Source: Gammaproteobacteria bacterium
GTDB lineage: Bacteria > Pseudomonadota > Gammaproteobacteria > RBG-16-57-12
Direction of reading: 5' to 3'
NCBI GenBank assembly: GCA_021647245.1
Contig: JAKIVC010000002.1
Coordinates: forward strand, 64,184-128,183
Length of the DNA stretch: 64,000 nucleotides
Part shown: positions 2,925 to 62,789 of the stretch, piece by piece
How positions within the stretch are numbered: the first letter of the stretch is position 1
How the letters are laid out: each line of letters starts with the position of its first letter
Notes under the pieces: model-generated
Database searches by the model: none
Told to the model about the DNA's origin: nothing
Seen by the model: only the letters and a program-made list of their open reading frames with translations
Position numbers and translations under genes: made by a program

Positions 2925-3452
2925 TTAAGCGGCTATGTTCATGAATGCCTGTGATTGCGCCAGCTTTGGCAGGCTTAGCACATGGTACTCTTGTGAGTCG
3001 TCCATAAAACCTGCTGTCAGGTAGGGTACTAATTTTGGGTCATTCGAGGCGTGATTTTCGACCTTTTTTGTCTGGTCGAGATGCCTGAGGCCGTGAACCT
3101 CGTCGACCAGCAACCCCGCCATCAGTCCCGACTGGTTAATGACCAGTATACGGCTGTTTTTTTGGGCGGTAGGTGCGCGTAAATCGAGAAATGCGGCGAG
3201 ATCAATGATGGTGATTAAGCTTCCTCGCACATTGGCTACACCTCTCACCCATGGCTTAACACCAGGCAGCAGAGAAATATGAGGGCAGGGTGCCACCTCC
3301 TGTATCTCGGAAAGAGCGGATATTAGGTTGATTTTGCCAAAGCGGTAGCTGATACCGTGCCAGATTTTCCGTGCCTTATCGGGCTGTGGTAATGGGGTGG
3401 CATTTTCGTGAGCTCGCGCTGCAATTTCTTGTAGTAATTGAAAAAAATTCAT
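2925..3452 (-). CDS. pilI: CheW-like coupling protein (PilI-like)
   Basis: 175 aa with CheW-domain features (VRGVANVRGSLITIIDLAAFL, LLVDEVHGL). Its ATG overlaps the pilG stop (ATGA). Confidence 0.85.
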   Translation of the reverse strand: MNFFQLLQEIAARAHENATPLPQPDKARKIWHGISYRFGKINLISALSEIQEVAPCPHISLLPGVKPWVRGVANVRGSLITIIDLAAFLDLRAPTAQKNSRILVINQSGLMAGLLVDEVHGLRHLDQTKKVENHASNDPKLVPYLTAGFMDDSQEYHVLSLPKLAQSQAFMNIAA

Positions 3453-3850
3453 TGCGTAACCGCCCTCGGTACATGGTGTTTTACGGCATCCAGTAGTTCA
3501 TCTTTGGTAAAAGGCTTGGTCAGGTACTGATCCGAACCTACAATCCGCCCACGGGCACGGTCAAACAGACCATCTTTACTGGTGAGCATAACCACCGGAG
3601 TTGTTTTGAAGGTGTGGTTGTGTTTAATCAGGGCGCAGGTTTGATAGCCATCGAGGCGCGGCATCATCACATCAACAAAAATCAGATCGGGCTTGTGATC
3701 GGTGATGATAGAGAGTGCAGCAAACCCGTCGATGGCTGTGACAACATCACAACCCGCTTTTTGGAGGAGTGTTTCCGCTGTGCGGCGGATTGTTTTACTG
3801 TCATCAATGACCATCACTTTTACATTTTGAAACTGGGTTGTATTCGCCAT
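3449..3850 (-). CDS. pilG: single-domain CheY-like response regulator PilG
   Basis: 133 aa. KVMVIDDSKTIRRTAETLL..IFVDVMMPRLDGYQTCALIK..GRIVGSDQYLTKPF matches PilG as I remember it from P. aeruginosa better than PilH. It is divergent from gshA/gshB, as in Pseudomonas. Confidence 0.9.
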   Translation of the reverse strand: MANTTQFQNVKVMVIDDSKTIRRTAETLLQKAGCDVVTAIDGFAALSIITDHKPDLIFVDVMMPRLDGYQTCALIKHNHTFKTTPVVMLTSKDGLFDRARGRIVGSDQYLTKPFTKDELLDAVKHHVPRAVTQ

Positions 3851-10422: not shown

Positions 10423-10925
10423 GAGAAAATTTTGAGGTAACCACCCTGCTAGTGCAGATGGGCGAACAACTACAGGCACTCCTGAAGAAAAACGGGATTA
10501 GCGAAGCCAAGATGATTGGGATATACAGTGGTGGCGTCTGGGTAGCAGAACCACTGCACCGGCAGCTGGGTCTGGAGAGTCCGCTGGGTTGCCTCAACAT
10601 CTCCTTCTACCGGGATGACTTCACCCAGGTGGGCATGCACCCCGAGGTAAAGCCTTCGAACTTGCCTTTCGGCATCGATGGTGAAAACCTGATTTTGGTG
10701 GATGATGTTCTCTATACCGGACGAACGATTCGAGCCGCGTTGAACGAGATATTTGATTATGGCCGACCCGCATCGGTAACCTTAGTGGTGTTGGCGGATC
10801 GAAATGGCCGTGAGCTACCCATTCAGGCCGATGTGGTGGGCGTTAAGCTTGATCTGGACAGTCATGAACAGGTTAAGTTGAGTGGCCCCCAAAAACTCTC
10901 CCTGAATATTATCGAGTCCTTATGA
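10419..10925 (+). CDS. pyrR: bifunctional pyrimidine operon regulator / uracil phosphoribosyltransferase PyrR
   Basis: 168 aa with the PRTase motif [18 protein letters not shown]. It lies upstream of pyrB. Confidence 0.9.
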
Positions 10926-16025: not shown

Positions 16026-16183
16026 CTGTTATTCCCAATAATAAATTGTACCGAAGTCATCTTACCACCCTATGGTGTGGGTTGGTAAGCGGTTGATTAT
16101 TTGATGGTTGAGCATTGATTATAGCCGTGTATAGCGGCATTCTAGAAGAAAAACTTAGCCCCTGTAAGGCCTTTGTTCTCATT

Positions 16184-16265
16184 CCCAGATAGGGTCACGC
16201 ATACTGTACAAGCTCTTGATTCCACAGTGAAACCAAACGCTTACACACTAACCTGGGGATGAGGG
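16184..16265 (+). repeat. MITE-like repeat family A, short variant (copy A1)
   Basis: cccagatagggtcacgcatactgtacaagctcttgattccacagtgaaacc..cttacacac..ctggggatgaggg aligns with the ends of the full copies at 41.46 and 50.55 kb. It has one CACAGTGAAA box instead of two. It is intergenic, between pilT and yggS. Confidence 0.7.
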
Positions 16266-16333
16266 CTTTACGTGAAAGGTGGTTTCATCCTGCGGGGTGG
16301 TAGTATGAGGTGTCATATCCAACGGGAGAGGTG

Positions 16334-18468: not shown

Positions 18469-18597
18469 TCGCTTGATAGGCCATTATCTGCACGGTAAAA
18501 ATAAATTCTGTTAATACCCAGTAAATACAGACCGATACACTGTGATGTAAATGTAAAAAGGCAACTGGCCTTCTTCCCCAGGCGGATATGGAAAGTG

Positions 18598-20544
18598 ATG
18601 GAAACCAATACTTTATCAGAGAGATTACACTGCTATAACCAATGGAAAGATGACGTCGTCCATAAGCTTAAAGCTTATGAACAGGTTCTTAAGGATGCTG
18701 AACTTGACAGCGTAGAGCAGGAAATCCGCATCGACGATATGATTGCCAAGTTGCATGATGATCGTATTGTTGTGGCCTTTGTCGCAGAGTTTTCCCGGGG
18801 GAAAACCGAATTAATAAATGCTATTTTCTTTGCAGATTACAAACGCCGACTACTGCCATCTGAGGCAGGTCGTACCACGATGTGCCCAACCGAGCTATTT
18901 TACGACCATGAGAGTACGGATGCTTACATTCGGTTACTGCCAATAGAGACACGCCTAGACGACAGCAGCATCAATGAACATAAACAGGATCTGAGTTACT
19001 GGACAACGTTACACCTTGATATCTCTTCACCAGAAAAGATGGCAGAGAGCTTTAAAGAGGTTATAAAGGTTAAAAAGGTGAGCGTGAAGGAGGCGATTAA
19101 ACTCGGCCTCTACGACGAAACACTGGTGGATAATGAAGAGTCGGAGGTTGAGATCCCCATGTGGCGGCATGCCCTGATCAGCTTCCCCCACCCGCTGTTA
19201 AAAGAGGGACTAGTGATCCTGGATACACCCGGCTTGAACGCGCTGGGTACAGAGCCAGAATTGACCATGGATATGTTACCCAATGCACATGCAATCATGT
19301 TTGTTTTGGGTGCTGACACCGGTGTAACCCGCTCTGATATGGAAGTGTGGGATCAGCATGTGAGCAGTTTTAGCCGTGGCAGTAATCATTCAAACCTGAT
19401 GGTGGTGCTCAATAAAATTGACACATTATGGGATGAGTTGCTGGATGATGAGCAAGTGGCCGCCAATATCGACAGCCAGTGCCAAAATACCGCTAAAACA
19501 TTGAATGTCTCCCCCGACTCAATATTCCCTGTCTCGGCCCACAAGGGGTTGCTGGGGCGCGTGAAAAATAACCCAGAGCTGCTGGAAAAGAGTGGCATTG
19601 CATCGATTGAAAATATGCTTTCGGATACTGTTTTACCGGAAAAGCAGACCATTATTCGTGATCGGGTTATCGACGAAGTGGGCACTATGGTGGAGTCAAC
19701 GCTAAATATTATCCAGGCGCGACATAATTCAGTGCAAGAGCAGCTGGGCGAACTGCAAGGGATCGGCAACAAAAATGAGGCGATGATCAGCCACTTGATC
19801 AAGACCACCCATGCTGAAGCAATCGCCTATAAGGTGAGAGTCGACAACTACCACACCAGCCGTAATCTGCTTAACAGCAAAATCAAAGAGATCCTGGAAT
19901 ACGTTGACCTTAAAGTCCTCGATAGGGTGATTGATGAGGCTCGCAATGAGATGCAAGGCACCTGGACAACCGGCGGCTTGCGTAAATCAATGATGTTCTT
20001 CTTTGAAAATATGATGCAGATCATGTCGCAGGTGAACTACCTTGGCGAGCAAGCCAATGATTTGGTCAAGACATCTTACAAGCGCTTCCATGAAGAGTTT
20101 GGCTTGCCAAACATTCGCCCAACGCTGTTTTCCAACCAGGTTTATGTGCTGCGTATGGAGCGACTACTCAAGCGCTCCGAGGAGTACCGAACCAGCTCAA
20201 CCATGACCATGACCGAACAGAGCTTTGTTATTAAGCGTTTCTTTGTCTCGGTGGTGAGCCATGCCCGTGATGTTTTTTATAAAGCGAATGAAGAGTCTAG
20301 GCTGTGGTCAAAAAGTGCCTTGGCTCCTATCGCAACGGAGATAAAAGAGCGCAAGCGGGTAATGGATAAGCGGCTCAGTAACCTGAATCGAGTAAAAGAC
20401 TCCAAAGAGACATTAGAGAGCAAGCTGAACGAGCTGGCTGACGAACAGCGTGGCCTAGATAAACAGCTCAGCGAACTCAATGAGATCAATGAAATTATTT
20501 GCGCCCCCCTCGACAAAGAGAAGAGTGAGCCTAATAATCAATAA
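18598..20544 (+). CDS. bacterial dynamin-like GTPase family protein
   Basis: 648 aa from ATG 18598. G1 is EFSRGKTELINAI, G3 is LDTPGLNA and G4 is LNKID. It has a long helical C-terminal half with a coiled-coil tail. It is visibly AT-richer than its neighbours. Confidence 0.8.
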   Translation: METNTLSERLHCYNQWKDDVVHKLKAYEQVLKDAELDSVEQEIRIDDMIAKLHDDRIVVAFVAEFSRGKTELINAIFFADYKRRLLPSEAGRTTMCPTELFYDHESTDAYIRLLPIETRLDDSSINEHKQDLSYWTTLHLDISSPEKMAESFKEVIKVKKVSVKEAIKLGLYDETLVDNEESEVEIPMWRHALISFPHPLLKEGLVILDTPGLNALGTEPELTMDMLPNAHAIMFVLGADTGVTRSDMEVWDQHVSSFSRGSNHSNLMVVLNKIDTLWDELLDDEQVAANIDSQCQNTAKTLNVSPDSIFPVSAHKGLLGRVKNNPELLEKSGIASIENMLSDTVLPEKQTIIRDRVIDEVGTMVESTLNIIQARHNSVQEQLGELQGIGNKNEAMISHLIKTTHAEAIAYKVRVDNYHTSRNLLNSKIKEILEYVDLKVLDRVIDEARNEMQGTWTTGGLRKSMMFFFENMMQIMSQVNYLGEQANDLVKTSYKRFHEEFGLPNIRPTLFSNQVYVLRMERLLKRSEEYRTSSTMTMTEQSFVIKRFFVSVVSHARDVFYKANEESRLWSKSALAPIATEIKERKRVMDKRLSNLNRVKDSKETLESKLNELADEQRGLDKQLSELNEINEIICAPLDKEKSEPNNQ

Positions 20545-20550
20545 CCCCTC

Positions 20551-20588
20551 CCTTCCGCAGTAGACTCACCCTAAGTCCGACAGCCTCC
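20551..20588 (-). repeat. solo end of MITE-like repeat family B (copy B2)
   Basis: ccttccgcagtagactcaccctaagtccgacagcctcc is the reverse complement of the left end of the 33.6 kb element (ggagg-tcggacttagggtgaatctactgcggaa). It starts 7 nt after the dynamin stop. Confidence 0.6.
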
Positions 20589-20671
20589 TGGCGTGTGGAT
20601 AGCGCTCTCGCAATGAAGGGGGGCAATCGGTTATATTGTGCATAACTTAATCTATAAGTGATGTGCACCCT

Positions 20672-32374: not shown

Positions 32375-33598
32375 ATGACGGTATGGGGAAATATGATGAG
32401 CTTTTTTGCTAAAAAAATGAAGTGGGGTGTTTGTGTCATTAGCGGCGCTACCCTAATGGTTGCAGGCTCGGCAGCATCGGCATCTGGAATCACTGAAGCG
32501 ATTAAAGGGGGTGAGGTCAGCGGTGATTTTCGTCTGCGAATGGAGACGGTGACTCAAGATAACGCCCTAAATGATGCAAATGCACTCACATTGCGCAGTC
32601 GGCTGGGTTATCGAACAGCGGACTACAAGGGATTGACTGGTTTTATGGAGTTTGAAAATGTTACCGCGCTGAATGATGATTATGAGCCGATGCCCAGTAA
32701 CCCGGCCAAAACAGAGTCAGTGGTGGCTGATCCGGAAGGCACCGAGGTTAATCAGCTCTATTTGAAGTATGTTTCGGGTGGTCACGCGATTACCGCAGGT
32801 CGCCAGCGGGTTATTCTGGATAATGCCCGTTTTGTGGGCAACGTTGGGTGGCGCCAAAATGAGCAGACATTTAATGCCATTGTCTTTACGGTAGATTCCG
32901 TTGCGGATACCTCACTTGTTTATGCTTACGTGGACGGGGTTAATACAATCCTCGGGGGTGAGTACGATACTTCCGCGTATATCTTTAACGCATCATATAC
33001 TGGCTTTAGTGCCGGAAAAATAACCGGTTACTCCTATGTTATTGAGCAGGATGATGTGCCTTCGGCCTCAAATTCAATCCTGGGTTTACGGTTTTCCGGG
33101 GCGACAGATGTAGCAGAAGCCAAGGTAAAATATACGCTTGAGTATGCGAAGCAGTCGGATTATGCCGAGGGCACTAATATTGATGCCCAATACCTGTTGG
33201 CTGAATTAGGCGCAGAATTCAGTGGTGTGGGTATCAAGCTGGGCTACGAAGTGTTGGGGGATGGTAAGGGTGCAAATGACGCTTCATTCAGCACGCCCTT
33301 AGCCACGAAACACGCCTTTAATGGCTGGGCAGATGCCTTTTTAACCACGCCTACCGATGGCCTGCAGGATATTTATCTCTCCGTTACCACCCAAATTGAA
33401 GGGGTAAAGCTGTTAGCCGTCTACCACGACTACTCCGCAGATACCGGCAGTGCCGACCATGGCTCGGAGATCAACCTGCTTGCCGCTAAAAAGTTTGCAG
33501 GCCACTACACTGCGCTACTAAAGTATGCAGATTACTCTGCGGGTGATAGTGGTACGGATACCAGAAAGCTGTGGTTGATGGGGCAGATGAAATTTTAG
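32375..33598 (+). CDS. outer-membrane porin-like beta-barrel protein (family uncertain)
   Basis: 407 aa with a signal peptide and beta-barrel repeats (GDFRLRMETV.., LTLRSRLGYRT). The C-terminal ..LMGQMKF has the terminal-Phe OMP signature. The start may be ATG 32393. Confidence 0.7.
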   Translation: MTVWGNMMSFFAKKMKWGVCVISGATLMVAGSAASASGITEAIKGGEVSGDFRLRMETVTQDNALNDANALTLRSRLGYRTADYKGLTGFMEFENVTALNDDYEPMPSNPAKTESVVADPEGTEVNQLYLKYVSGGHAITAGRQRVILDNARFVGNVGWRQNEQTFNAIVFTVDSVADTSLVYAYVDGVNTILGGEYDTSAYIFNASYTGFSAGKITGYSYVIEQDDVPSASNSILGLRFSGATDVAEAKVKYTLEYAKQSDYAEGTNIDAQYLLAELGAEFSGVGIKLGYEVLGDGKGANDASFSTPLATKHAFNGWADAFLTTPTDGLQDIYLSVTTQIEGVKLLAVYHDYSADTGSADHGSEINLLAAKKFAGHYTALLKYADYSAGDSGTDTRKLWLMGQMKF

Positions 33599-33600
33599 GA

Positions 33601-33758
33601 GGAGGTCGGACTTAGGGTGAATCTACTGCGGAAAAGCCATTCTGGCCCATTTCTCTGATCCTTTTCGTTGAATATGCCCAATATTCGCCTCAAACGACCA
33701 AAAAAATGGACTCAAAATGGCTTTCCCTCGCTACGATTACCTAAGCCCGACAGCCTCC
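33601..33758 (+). repeat. MITE-like repeat family B, full copy (B1)
   Basis: Terminal inverted repeats are ggaggtcggacttagggtga (33601-33620) and ttacctaagcccgacagcctcc (33737-33758). It begins 3 nt after the porin stop. The left end recurs inverted at 20551-20588. Confidence 0.65.
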
Positions 33759-37924: not shown

Positions 37925-38010
37925 CTCCTACCCTATCTTCATGTAGGAGTGTAAAGCACTGTGGAATCAATCTCTTGCACAGTATACGCACTTCTATTTG
38001 AGGGTTAGGG
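37925..38010 (-). repeat. MITE-like repeat family A, short variant (copy A2)
   Basis: gtgtaaagcactgtggaatcaatctcttgcacagtatacgcacttctatttgagggttaggg aligns with the reverse complement of copy A1 and with the end of copy A4. It lies in the nasA / haemoglobin divergent intergenic region. Confidence 0.6.
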
Positions 38011-38162
38011 TTTTAGTCAAAAGCAAGTGAAGCAGTTTGCCGTATACCGTTGTAACTTGATAACGATCTGATAATCGTTAATAAAGTGTTATTTTTTTAG
38101 TGTATTTATGTTTAACTGCACAAGGTAAGAGACAAAACTATTTTCTTTATAGGAGAGAACAC

Positions 38163-41340: not shown

Positions 41341-41455
41341 TCTGCTATTCCTCGTTTTCCTCGTCTATCAGGTAGCCCAGAATAACATTATGATGCGGGT
41401 TTCGAGTTACTCCGTACTACTACCTATAAGGGGTTTGGAACAAGTGAGGGTAATT

Positions 41456-41603
41456 CCCCTAATCCCTAGGTAGCAACACGTATGCAGGCCCTTGATTCCA
41501 CAGCAAAGCAAAAAATCGTCACCGAACCTACGGGTGCTACTCCTATTTTTTATTTCACTGTGAAACCGATATCTTACATATCATTACGTATTTTTATCTG
41601 GAG
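41456..41603 (+). repeat. MITE-like repeat family A, full copy (A3)
   Basis: The left end is cccctaatccctaggtagcaacacgta and the right end is tacgtatttttatctggag, forming imperfect terminal inverted repeats. Two internal CACAG(T/C)..AA / CACTGTGAAA boxes are present. About 140 nt align with the reverse complement of 50553-50707. Confidence 0.75.
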
Positions 41604-41751
41604 TTTATGCTGAGCCTAAACCTACCCAAACTTGTTTAAAATCTCCTTAACGGATAGCGTTCTATGCTTGCAGATCTTTAACATTTTTTTCATGAATGGT
41701 CTTGGGCTGGCCGGCTGGTTTTTGGTGGTTGGCCCCCAAAAATCACTCTGG

Positions 41752-50527: not shown

Positions 50528-50552
50528 AGAGATTTTTTCAATAAACGGTTAA

Positions 50553-50707
50553 CTCTAGATAGAAGCGCGAGATGATGTGTAAGATACGGGTTTCACAGTG
50601 AAACTAAAAATATTAGTCGCACCCGCAGGTTCGGCGGCTATTTTTTGTTTTACTGTGAAATCAATGACTTGTACAGAATACGTGCTTCTATCTGGGGATT
50701 AGGGGTT
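50553..50707 (-). repeat. MITE-like repeat family A, full copy (A4)
   Basis: The ends are ctctagatagaagcgcga and tacgtgcttctatctggggattaggggtt. The interior has tttcacagtgaaac and ttttactgtgaaatc boxes around agtcgcacccgcaggttcggcggc. A 9-nt direct repeat GGTTAACTC lies at 50547-50555 and 50704-50712. Confidence 0.75.
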
Positions 50708-50772
50708 AACTCCAAACTGGCACTTAACAGATGTCTGTGTTAAAAAAAGCAACTAACTTTTTAGAGGATAAA

Positions 50773-62178: not shown

Positions 62179-62203
62179 GCTCGAACAGTTAAAAAATATG
62201 GCT

Positions 62204-62320
62204 CTATGTGAAATAGAGCGGGTAATTGAACTTTAGTTTTCCACAAAGAAAGTAAACCATATTGATGAAATTATCGATATTACGATAGCCTCTTGCTCGA
62301 CGTTTGGCGAGCTGAACCTT
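62204..62320 (-). pseudogene. 3' remnant of a DDE transposase gene (family uncertain, ISL3-like C-terminus)
   Basis: The minus-strand translation KVQLAKRRARGYRNIDNFINMVYFLCGKLKFNYPLYFT* resembles the conserved ..K.....K..A.G(Y/F)RN..NF......  tail of IS transposases. No upstream body is present. Confidence 0.4.
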
Positions 62321-62321
62321 G

Positions 62322-62341
62322 CTCCCAAATCCCCAGATAGG
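62322..62341 (+). repeat. solo terminus related to repeat family A
   Basis: ctcccaaatccccagatagg compared with the family A end cccctaatccccagataga. The 12-mer atccccagatag is identical and the flanks are similar. Confidence 0.4.
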
Positions 62342-62789
62342 ACTCCCTCCGACCTCTAAGAACCATTAACGAGGCTGTAGAAAAACCCACCCAGAGCCCC
62401 TTCCTACCTGCCCAGTGTCTATTCCACATCACTTTCAATGATAATCATCTTGTAGTCCGACATTGACCTGCCAATAGCGGTATTGGCGGCTATTGAGGGC
62501 TTTATTTGGCCTTTTCTTTACACTCAGTGGATTAGTTGTCCATAGTTGGCCAGCTTCTCTATATAGTGCACTATAAGCAGTAGCCTTGTACTTTGCTTTT
62601 TCCTCTCAGGCTAAAACGATTGAGTCCTTTATTGCTGCACATATTGGCGAATACGGGCTGACCGCCATGGACGCAAATGTGCCTTAGATTCTTAAAGATC
62701 AAGCCATATAGAAAACAATAGACCTCTAAATACATTATGTACAGACTTGACCCCTTTACTTTATCTGACCCCTTTATAAAATAAAAAGA

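Follow-up and report, generated by a model that had tools for sequence, protein, structure and literature searches.

ERIC elements are intergenic imperfect palindromes, bounded by terminal inverted repeats and flanked by TA, that give rise to a long RNA hairpin when co-transcribed, occur as short variants formed by internal deletion and long variants formed by insertion, and differ in copy number among close relatives (PMC3184786, PMC10969869). The Correia elements of Neisseria (CREE/NEMIS) are ∼100-160 bp long, with terminal repeats of ∼26 bp and an internal IHF-binding site, and they too display internal-deletion length variants, insertion polymorphism between strains and, when transcribed, a hairpin RNA that is cleaved by RNase III (PMC3184786, PMC10969869). 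Effects on transcripts that are mediated by RNase III or RNase E have been described for ERIC and Correia elements (PMC3184786, PMC10969869). The repeats reported here are a previously uncatalogued, recently mobile MITE family, an element of a well-known kind, in an uncultured vent gammaproteobacterium. The window analysed, meaning the whole 64-kb stretch of DNA, contains two long copies, A and B, two short copies, C and D, and a solo terminal repeat, while the copies designated L004 and L013 are from other assemblies.

The family is similar in architecture to ERIC, a TA-flanked palindrome of about 127 bp that occurs in transcribed intergenic regions, in that its members are ∼130-160-bp intergenic imperfect palindromes with terminal repeats and with deletion and insertion variants, although TA flanks are found here at copies A, B and D only. 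There is no detectable similarity in sequence, and the host is a vent gammaproteobacterium near Ca. Tenderia and not a member of the Enterobacteriaceae or Vibrionaceae. An IHF-like site and two palindromic boxes, both of which are present in this family, are not known to be features of ERIC. Identity with ERIC at the sequence level was rejected by a blastn search of the intact copy against 5,426 complete E. coli genomes, which carry ERIC, as there was no match at E ≤ 1. The likeness to Correia elements extends to size, terminal-repeat length, the IHF-like site, internal-deletion variants and insertion polymorphism, whereas the host is different, the TA duplication that is regular in Correia is irregular here, and the ends of the present elements have no promoter-like hexamers. 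The Correia terminal repeat probably also differs in sequence from that of this family. The outside end of IS10/Tn10, which contains AATCCCCT(A/G)AT, has an IHF site beside the terminal repeat, as the family may also have, but the putative similarity to the IS10 end covers only ∼13 nt and lies at a different distance from the tip. IS10 produces target duplications of 9 bp; copy B matches eight of the nine positions of such a duplication, while the other copies have no 9-bp duplications. Finally, as in REPINs and REP doublets, inverted palindromic units form a hairpin, the fold is strand specific and there is no regular target duplication, but the family differs in its far longer terminal repeats, its lower density, the lack of a RAYT in the window and a 6-8-bp duplication at copy B. 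The family consensus reads GATAG (GGTAG in copy A alone) and contains neither the GTAG nor the CGTC tag that is the hallmark of REP sequences (PMC3733652).

Searches of databases and literature returned no described counterpart. Rfam gave no match in the window at gathering scores, and an E-value search with the L013 copy produced a single overlapping match, mir-3747, which is attributable to chance (22.5 bits compared with a gathering score of 63). There was no meaningful blastn match to the PLSDB plasmids, and literature searches with the terminal-repeat sequence strings yielded nothing relevant. The terminal repeat had only a chance match in IMG/VR viral contigs. Integron attC sites were discarded as candidates because the insertions comprise nothing but the element, with housekeeping genes on either side, and the window contains no integrase.

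Copies in the window and in other genomes

Copies A and B (about 150-160 bp), copies C and D (about 85-95 bp) and the solo end belong to one single real family, confirming what was observed in the initial annotation. The inverted pair of ∼150-bp elements that had been placed at 41456-41603 and 50553-50707 was recovered by both a repeat finder and a family HMM, with borders shifted by a few bases: copy A lies at 41453..41605 on the plus strand and copy B at 50554..50704 on the minus strand. In the repeat-finder output 41485-41605 pairs with 50551-50671 at 79% complementarity across 121 nt, and an additional 28-nt terminal arm is 86% complementary. In nhmmer searches the HMM derived from the long copies detected A and B with E values of 1e-49 and 1e-53, respectively. 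The shortened, one-box copies annotated at 16184-16265 and 37925-38010 were recovered with long- and short-form HMMs as copy C (16176..16270, plus strand), which contains one hybrid box, and copy D (37931..38013, minus strand), the respective E values being 1e-11 and 1e-8 with the long-form HMM and 6e-24 and 1e-17 with the short-form HMM. The solo end, reported previously at 62322-62341, is a left terminal repeat (CCCAAATCCCCAGATAGGA) at 62324..62342 on the plus strand; it agrees with the 19-nt terminal repeat CCCTAATCCCCAGATAGAA at 17/19 positions, a match equalled in none of 100 shuffles. The density of the family in the window is ∼1 copy per 13-16 kb, and the copies range from 81 to 162 bp, or 264 bp for L004 with its nested insert.

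All copies are intergenic and contain no ORF, and in this respect the gene calls agree with the initial annotation. The neighbours of copy A are sbcB and an MCP (chemoreceptor) gene, each encoded by the minus strand, while copy B begins 27 nt past the stop codon of hrpB, with a conserved small ORF downstream of the element. The spacers occupied by the short forms separate divergent genes, pilT and yggS for copy C and nasA and a globin gene for copy D. The solo end lies in a non-coding spacer of 610 bp (62179-62789) between an lpxL-like gene and a small ORF; the ORFs of this spacer are at most 76 aa long, and Rfam gave no match in it. A decayed transposase was considered for the spacer, but on inspection its short ORFs did not resemble one.

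The genes that flank the copies are gammaproteobacterial in type, with a G+C content of ∼50%, and the nearest proteins are from hydrothermal-vent metagenomes and MAGs; SbcB is 75% identical to SbcB of Candidatus Tenderia electrophaga. Exact matches to the proteins of two genes beside the copies and of one gene at the start of the window were sought, and none was on record. Two assemblies of the same strain, GCA_024278815.1 and GCA_021648105.1, are identical to the window wherever they overlap it, and copy C is identical in a MAG of the same strain (L001). Beyond this strain, the L004 copy occupies the truA-trpF spacer of UOFP01000245 and the L013 copy is upstream of a DUF1415 gene in GCA_054015265.1, both of which are vent gammaproteobacterial assemblies. 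In L004 (3535-3545) the element takes up the entire spacer, ending 5 nt before the trpF start codon, such that the trpF ribosome-binding site directly adjoins the terminal repeat. In total six copies and one solo end were collected, and the family is present in at least three related genomes. A single scan each of a genome-contig and a metagenome-contig collection provided just one extra copy, L004: the genome-contig scan with CTGTRCAAGNNNTTGATTYCACAG, over species representatives that evidently do not include the source genome, hit nothing but a coding sequence of a Lewinellaceae MAG, by chance, and the metagenome scan found the one true copy and two chance matches. No further copies were present in ∼260 kb (with some redundancy) comprising the window and related loci.

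Organization of the element

The best preserved copy is that in L013 (329-490), in which the 25-bp terminal inverted repeats, TCCCTAATCCCCTGATAGAAAAACG, are identical at 25/25 positions, while those of the other copies are imperfect. Across the family the terminal inverted repeats are 25-26 bp, (A)TCCCTAATCCCCWGATAGAARCRCG. The imperfect terminal inverted repeats described earlier are therefore present, but the consensus then given for them is too short, omitting the outer CCCTAAT. We refer to the orientation that starts CCCTAATCCCCAGATAG as canonical and to the opposite strand as R. Proceeding inward, a long copy consists of the terminal repeat, a AATCAANNNNTTG segment (R strand), box 1 and an A-run, followed by a short GC stem, a T-run, box 2 (TTTCACTGTGAAA), the right arm and the right terminal repeat. 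The two internal palindromic boxes (TTTCACWGTGAAA) noted in the initial annotation enclose a core of 45 bp; in copy A box 1 (TTYCACAGYAAAR) is at 41496-41508 and box 2 at 41553..41565 on the plus strand, and in copy B the corresponding positions are within 50647-50664 for box 1 and ∼50591-50603 for box 2. The box core, TTGATTCCACAGTGAAAC, occurs four times when up to three mismatches are allowed, compared with 0.03 expected. The two halves are complementary throughout, so that the whole element is one long imperfect palindrome.

Copy A has a full left terminal repeat and a shortened right one (..TTATCTGGAGTT), and the right terminal repeats of both A and B are without the outer 8-11 nt, while in copy C the variant CCCTCATCCCC is found in both terminal repeats and thus represents a change on both sides. 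Alignment shows that the short forms correspond to a long form minus the segment that runs from the middle of one box to the middle of the other, a deletion of about 70 bp, with further losses of 12 nt in C and 10 nt in D. The proposal that the short forms arose by deletion between the two boxes fits this alignment; events may instead have run in the opposite direction, with long forms derived from short ones by insertion. In L004 the right arm carries a nested tandem insert of 2 × 49 bp. This 49-bp unit (GACGTGCARGGATGCACTAATRCAGCGGTGACAGGATGTCATGGAGCTG), which is tandemly duplicated at 3309-3407 and contains two small palindromes per unit, may be a REP-like element that has inserted into the MITE.

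Just internal to the left terminal repeat is a match to the IHF core consensus, WATCAANNNNTTR. The match occupies the homologous position in 6/6 copies, being exact in B, C, D and L004 and containing one mismatch in A and L013, while the N positions differ among copies. In copy B the site (AATCAATGACTTG) is at 50659..50671 on the plus strand, and its homologues are at 16209-16221 (minus strand) in C and 37965-37977 (plus strand) in D; three of the eight consensus matches in the window are inside family copies. Consensus scans revealed neither a sigma-70-like promoter nor an intrinsic terminator within the elements, and promoter scans around C and D were uninformative as to which transcript contains these copies. 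The possibility that the A-run, GC stem and T-run of the core serve as a two-way terminator was rejected, as the structure is not called by the consensus scan and its stem has only ∼4 G-C pairs.

Filled and empty sites

The initial annotation, which viewed the repeats as a non-autonomous MITE- or REP-like family that had spread through the genome, proposed that relatives be inspected for insertion polymorphism. All four window copies (4/4) are missing from the orthologous spacers of close relatives. Copy B is missing from L006, L007 and L008, in which HrpB is 93%, 88% and 79% identical, respectively, and GTTAAC, which flanks the element in the window, is present singly or not at all at the corresponding site of these genomes; the empty site reads AAACTGTTAACCCTAAACTGG, and in the filled site the element is preceded by AAACGGTTAAC and followed by GTTAACTCCAAACTGG. 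Copies A and D are missing in the closest relative, L009, where SbcB is 96% identical and gene order is conserved, and copy C is missing in L017-L019 (YggS 91% identical). Given that close relatives have these spacers without the elements, the window copies represent recent insertions. These filled and empty sites, in combination with the copies at unrelated loci in other genomes, show directly that the family is mobile, in agreement with the view taken in the initial annotation.

Target sites

The copies differ in the traces left at their target sites. At copy B the sequence GTTAAC is present on both flanks (50548-50553 and 50705-50710) and on the other strand the repeated stretch can be followed as far as GAGTTAAC, giving a duplication of 6-8 bp. 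Copy D has TA on either side (37929-37930 and 38014-38015), where its empty site has TT, while the junctions of copy C are CTTTG on the left and CTTTA on the right. For copy A the flanks are TA on each side (41451-41452 and 41606-41607) if the right end is ..GGAGTT, in which case the empty site is TA-GTT-TA; if a plain insertion is assumed, the empty site overlaps the two junctions by ≤1 nt. L013, the most intact copy, displays a target duplication of no length. Target-site duplications are thus inconsistent among the copies, those of C and D being ambiguous, and do not discriminate between a transposase-driven MITE and a REP-like element. On the left the flank terminates in TA(A) in 5/7 copies, and on the right three flanks start with (C)GTTT.

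In L009 the ‘empty' site of copy A (∼2440-2460, orthologous to 41444-41615 of the window) reads GAGGG-TA-GTT-TA-TGCTGAG. GTT corresponds to the last three bases of the right end of copy A, and the L009 site could be an excision footprint in the style of Tc1/mariner elements instead of a site into which the element had never inserted. The empty sites of copies A (L009, AGGGT-A-GTTTATGCTGA) and B (L006 3336-3348, AGGGTTAACAGTTTGCTGA) resemble each other, and both are also loosely similar to the outer end of the terminal repeat. A shared target motif built from the two sites, AGGGT..A..GTTT..GCTG, was rejected, showing no enrichment in the window or the related loci.

Strand-specific folding

Folding of both strands, another analysis suggested in the initial annotation, showed that the R strand forms the more stable structure in 6/6 copies, by 12-33 kcal/mol. 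Thus, L013 has a fold energy of −90.4 on the R strand compared with −65.6 on the canonical strand, and the equivalent values for copy B are −70.6 and −43.5. The difference is due to conserved G-U pairs, which number 5-11 on the R strand and 0-5 on the canonical strand across the six copies. The four long copies share a common hairpin of 58 pairs in which several G-U pairs are retained in all four sequences; 94.7% of its cells are paired, compared with 39-50% in controls whose partners were shifted by 1-3 columns. Compensatory changes, on both sides of the pair, are seen at four pairs, a number reached in 10/500 shuffles. The covariation support for the hairpin, drawn from four related sequences, is modest, and as compensatory pairs are located in the terminal repeats, a transposase that binds both ends would yield an equal pattern. 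Copies A, B and L004 are flanked by genes that run in one direction, and in 3/3 of these cases the R strand coincides with the sense strand of the flanking genes (p = 0.125); the remaining three copies are between divergent genes and hence are not scorable for orientation.

How the family moves

The elements are small (<∼500 bp) and non-coding, have terminal inverted repeats, are dispersed and display filled and empty sites, all of which are properties of MITEs. We favour, as the probable explanation, a family of non-autonomous DNA transposons that is moved in trans by a transposase encoded elsewhere in the genome. Such a transposase would bind the terminal repeats and mobilize the copies, possibly with the aid of IHF, and a copy located within a transcript in the favoured orientation would generate an RNA hairpin of ∼58 bp. 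By analogy with ERIC and Correia elements, this hairpin could alter the processing or stability of the mRNA. The hairpin and the IHF site are most likely accessory features of transposase-driven mobility. The 64-kb window encodes no transposase of any kind, RAYT/Y1 proteins included, and no cognate transposase or autonomous IS with the terminal repeats of the family was found in the window or among the PLSDB plasmids.

There is some slight chance that the family is instead an undescribed hybrid, which possesses terminal inverted repeats yet transposes in the form of a folded single strand or is under selection as a folded RNA. Several of the observations above would fit such an element, namely the hairpin stabilized on one strand by G-U (G-T) pairs, its correspondence with the sense strand in 3/3 cases, the insertion of L013 in the absence of a duplication, the TA(A)/(C)GTTT junctions and the TA-GTT-TA sequence at L009 that resembles an excision footprint.

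A REPIN-like, single-strand palindrome, in which an HUH/Y1 enzyme (RAYT or an IS200/IS605-type TnpA) inserts the folded hairpin strand adjoining a short target motif and without target duplication, is an unlikely explanation. The duplication is indeed lacking at intact L013 and is ≤1 bp at copy A, and the TA(A) left flanks, together with the three (C)GTTT right flanks, could be read as such a motif. Each box is a palindrome and the two boxes are inverted in the fashion of a REP doublet; the hairpin, moreover, is strand specific in six copies, with wobble pairs conserved in the four long ones. Perfect 25-bp terminal repeats, however, are typical of the substrates of DDE transposases and not of IS200/IS605 or REP ends, and the consensus is without the GTAG or CGTC tag of REP sequences (PMC3733652). 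The clear 6-8-bp target duplication at copy B, the size of ∼160 bp, the density in the window and the lack of a Y1/RAYT gene there also argue against this mode of movement.

Equally, the repeats might be RNA or DNA-architecture modules recruited by the host, in which a regulatory hairpin or IHF site is retained and spread is secondary, but this we judge to be quite improbable. In the relatives that have the same flanking genes the four window copies are missing, showing that they are not needed there. The correspondence between the better-folding strand and the sense strand in A, B and L004 is what would be anticipated for a functional RNA, but 3/3 copies give a p value of only 0.125; similarly, the conserved G-U pairs, which along with the IHF-like site point towards a retained function, may reflect simple inheritance in four related copies. 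Both short forms, which have lost the central core, sit between divergent genes, in keeping with recruitment, but scans found neither a promoter nor a terminator consensus in the elements. That the repeats resemble one another by chance, or are conserved regulatory sites in place of a repeat family, is a reading with the small copy number and nothing more in its favour; it is already refuted by the E values of 1e-49 to 1e-8, the 0/100 shuffles and the presence/absence polymorphism, and has virtually no likelihood.

The MITE family is a well-documented, recently active addition to the poorly known vent gammaproteobacteria, for which only MAGs were recovered in the collections searched. Its filled and empty sites could be used as strain markers in vent metagenomes, and the elements probably break assemblies, the contigs of related MAGs being short. 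This compact system also lends itself to testing two questions about bacterial MITEs, namely the role of an internal IHF site and whether conserved strand-specific hairpins have their origin in an RNA function or in an intermediate of single-strand transposition. Current understanding is unchanged by these data unless the single-strand or the RNA reading is true.

Other repeats

Further repeats were observed at these loci. A second MITE-like family, of ∼146 bp, is present in the relative ERZ27262642 (L007 ∼3430-3600; L017 ∼10724-10869, and the same in L018). It has the terminal repeats GTAACNAYTCAGCGT and clean direct duplications of 7 bp, AAGCAAC in the hrpB spacer and GAAATAT in the yggS-proC spacer, and is missing from the window at both spacers; its occurrence in the relative indicates that such genomes carry several lineage-specific MITE families. 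Within the window, a 37-nt motif, TTCCGCAGTAGAYTCACCCTAAGTCCGACNNCCTCCT, occurs at 20553-20589 (plus strand) and 33597-33633 (minus strand) with 92% identity. The two occurrences are right at the stop codons of a dynamin-like gene (18595-20544) and an alginate-export-like gene (32375-33598), respectively, and their flanks do not align. The motif may represent a further small repeat, or else a site of regulation.
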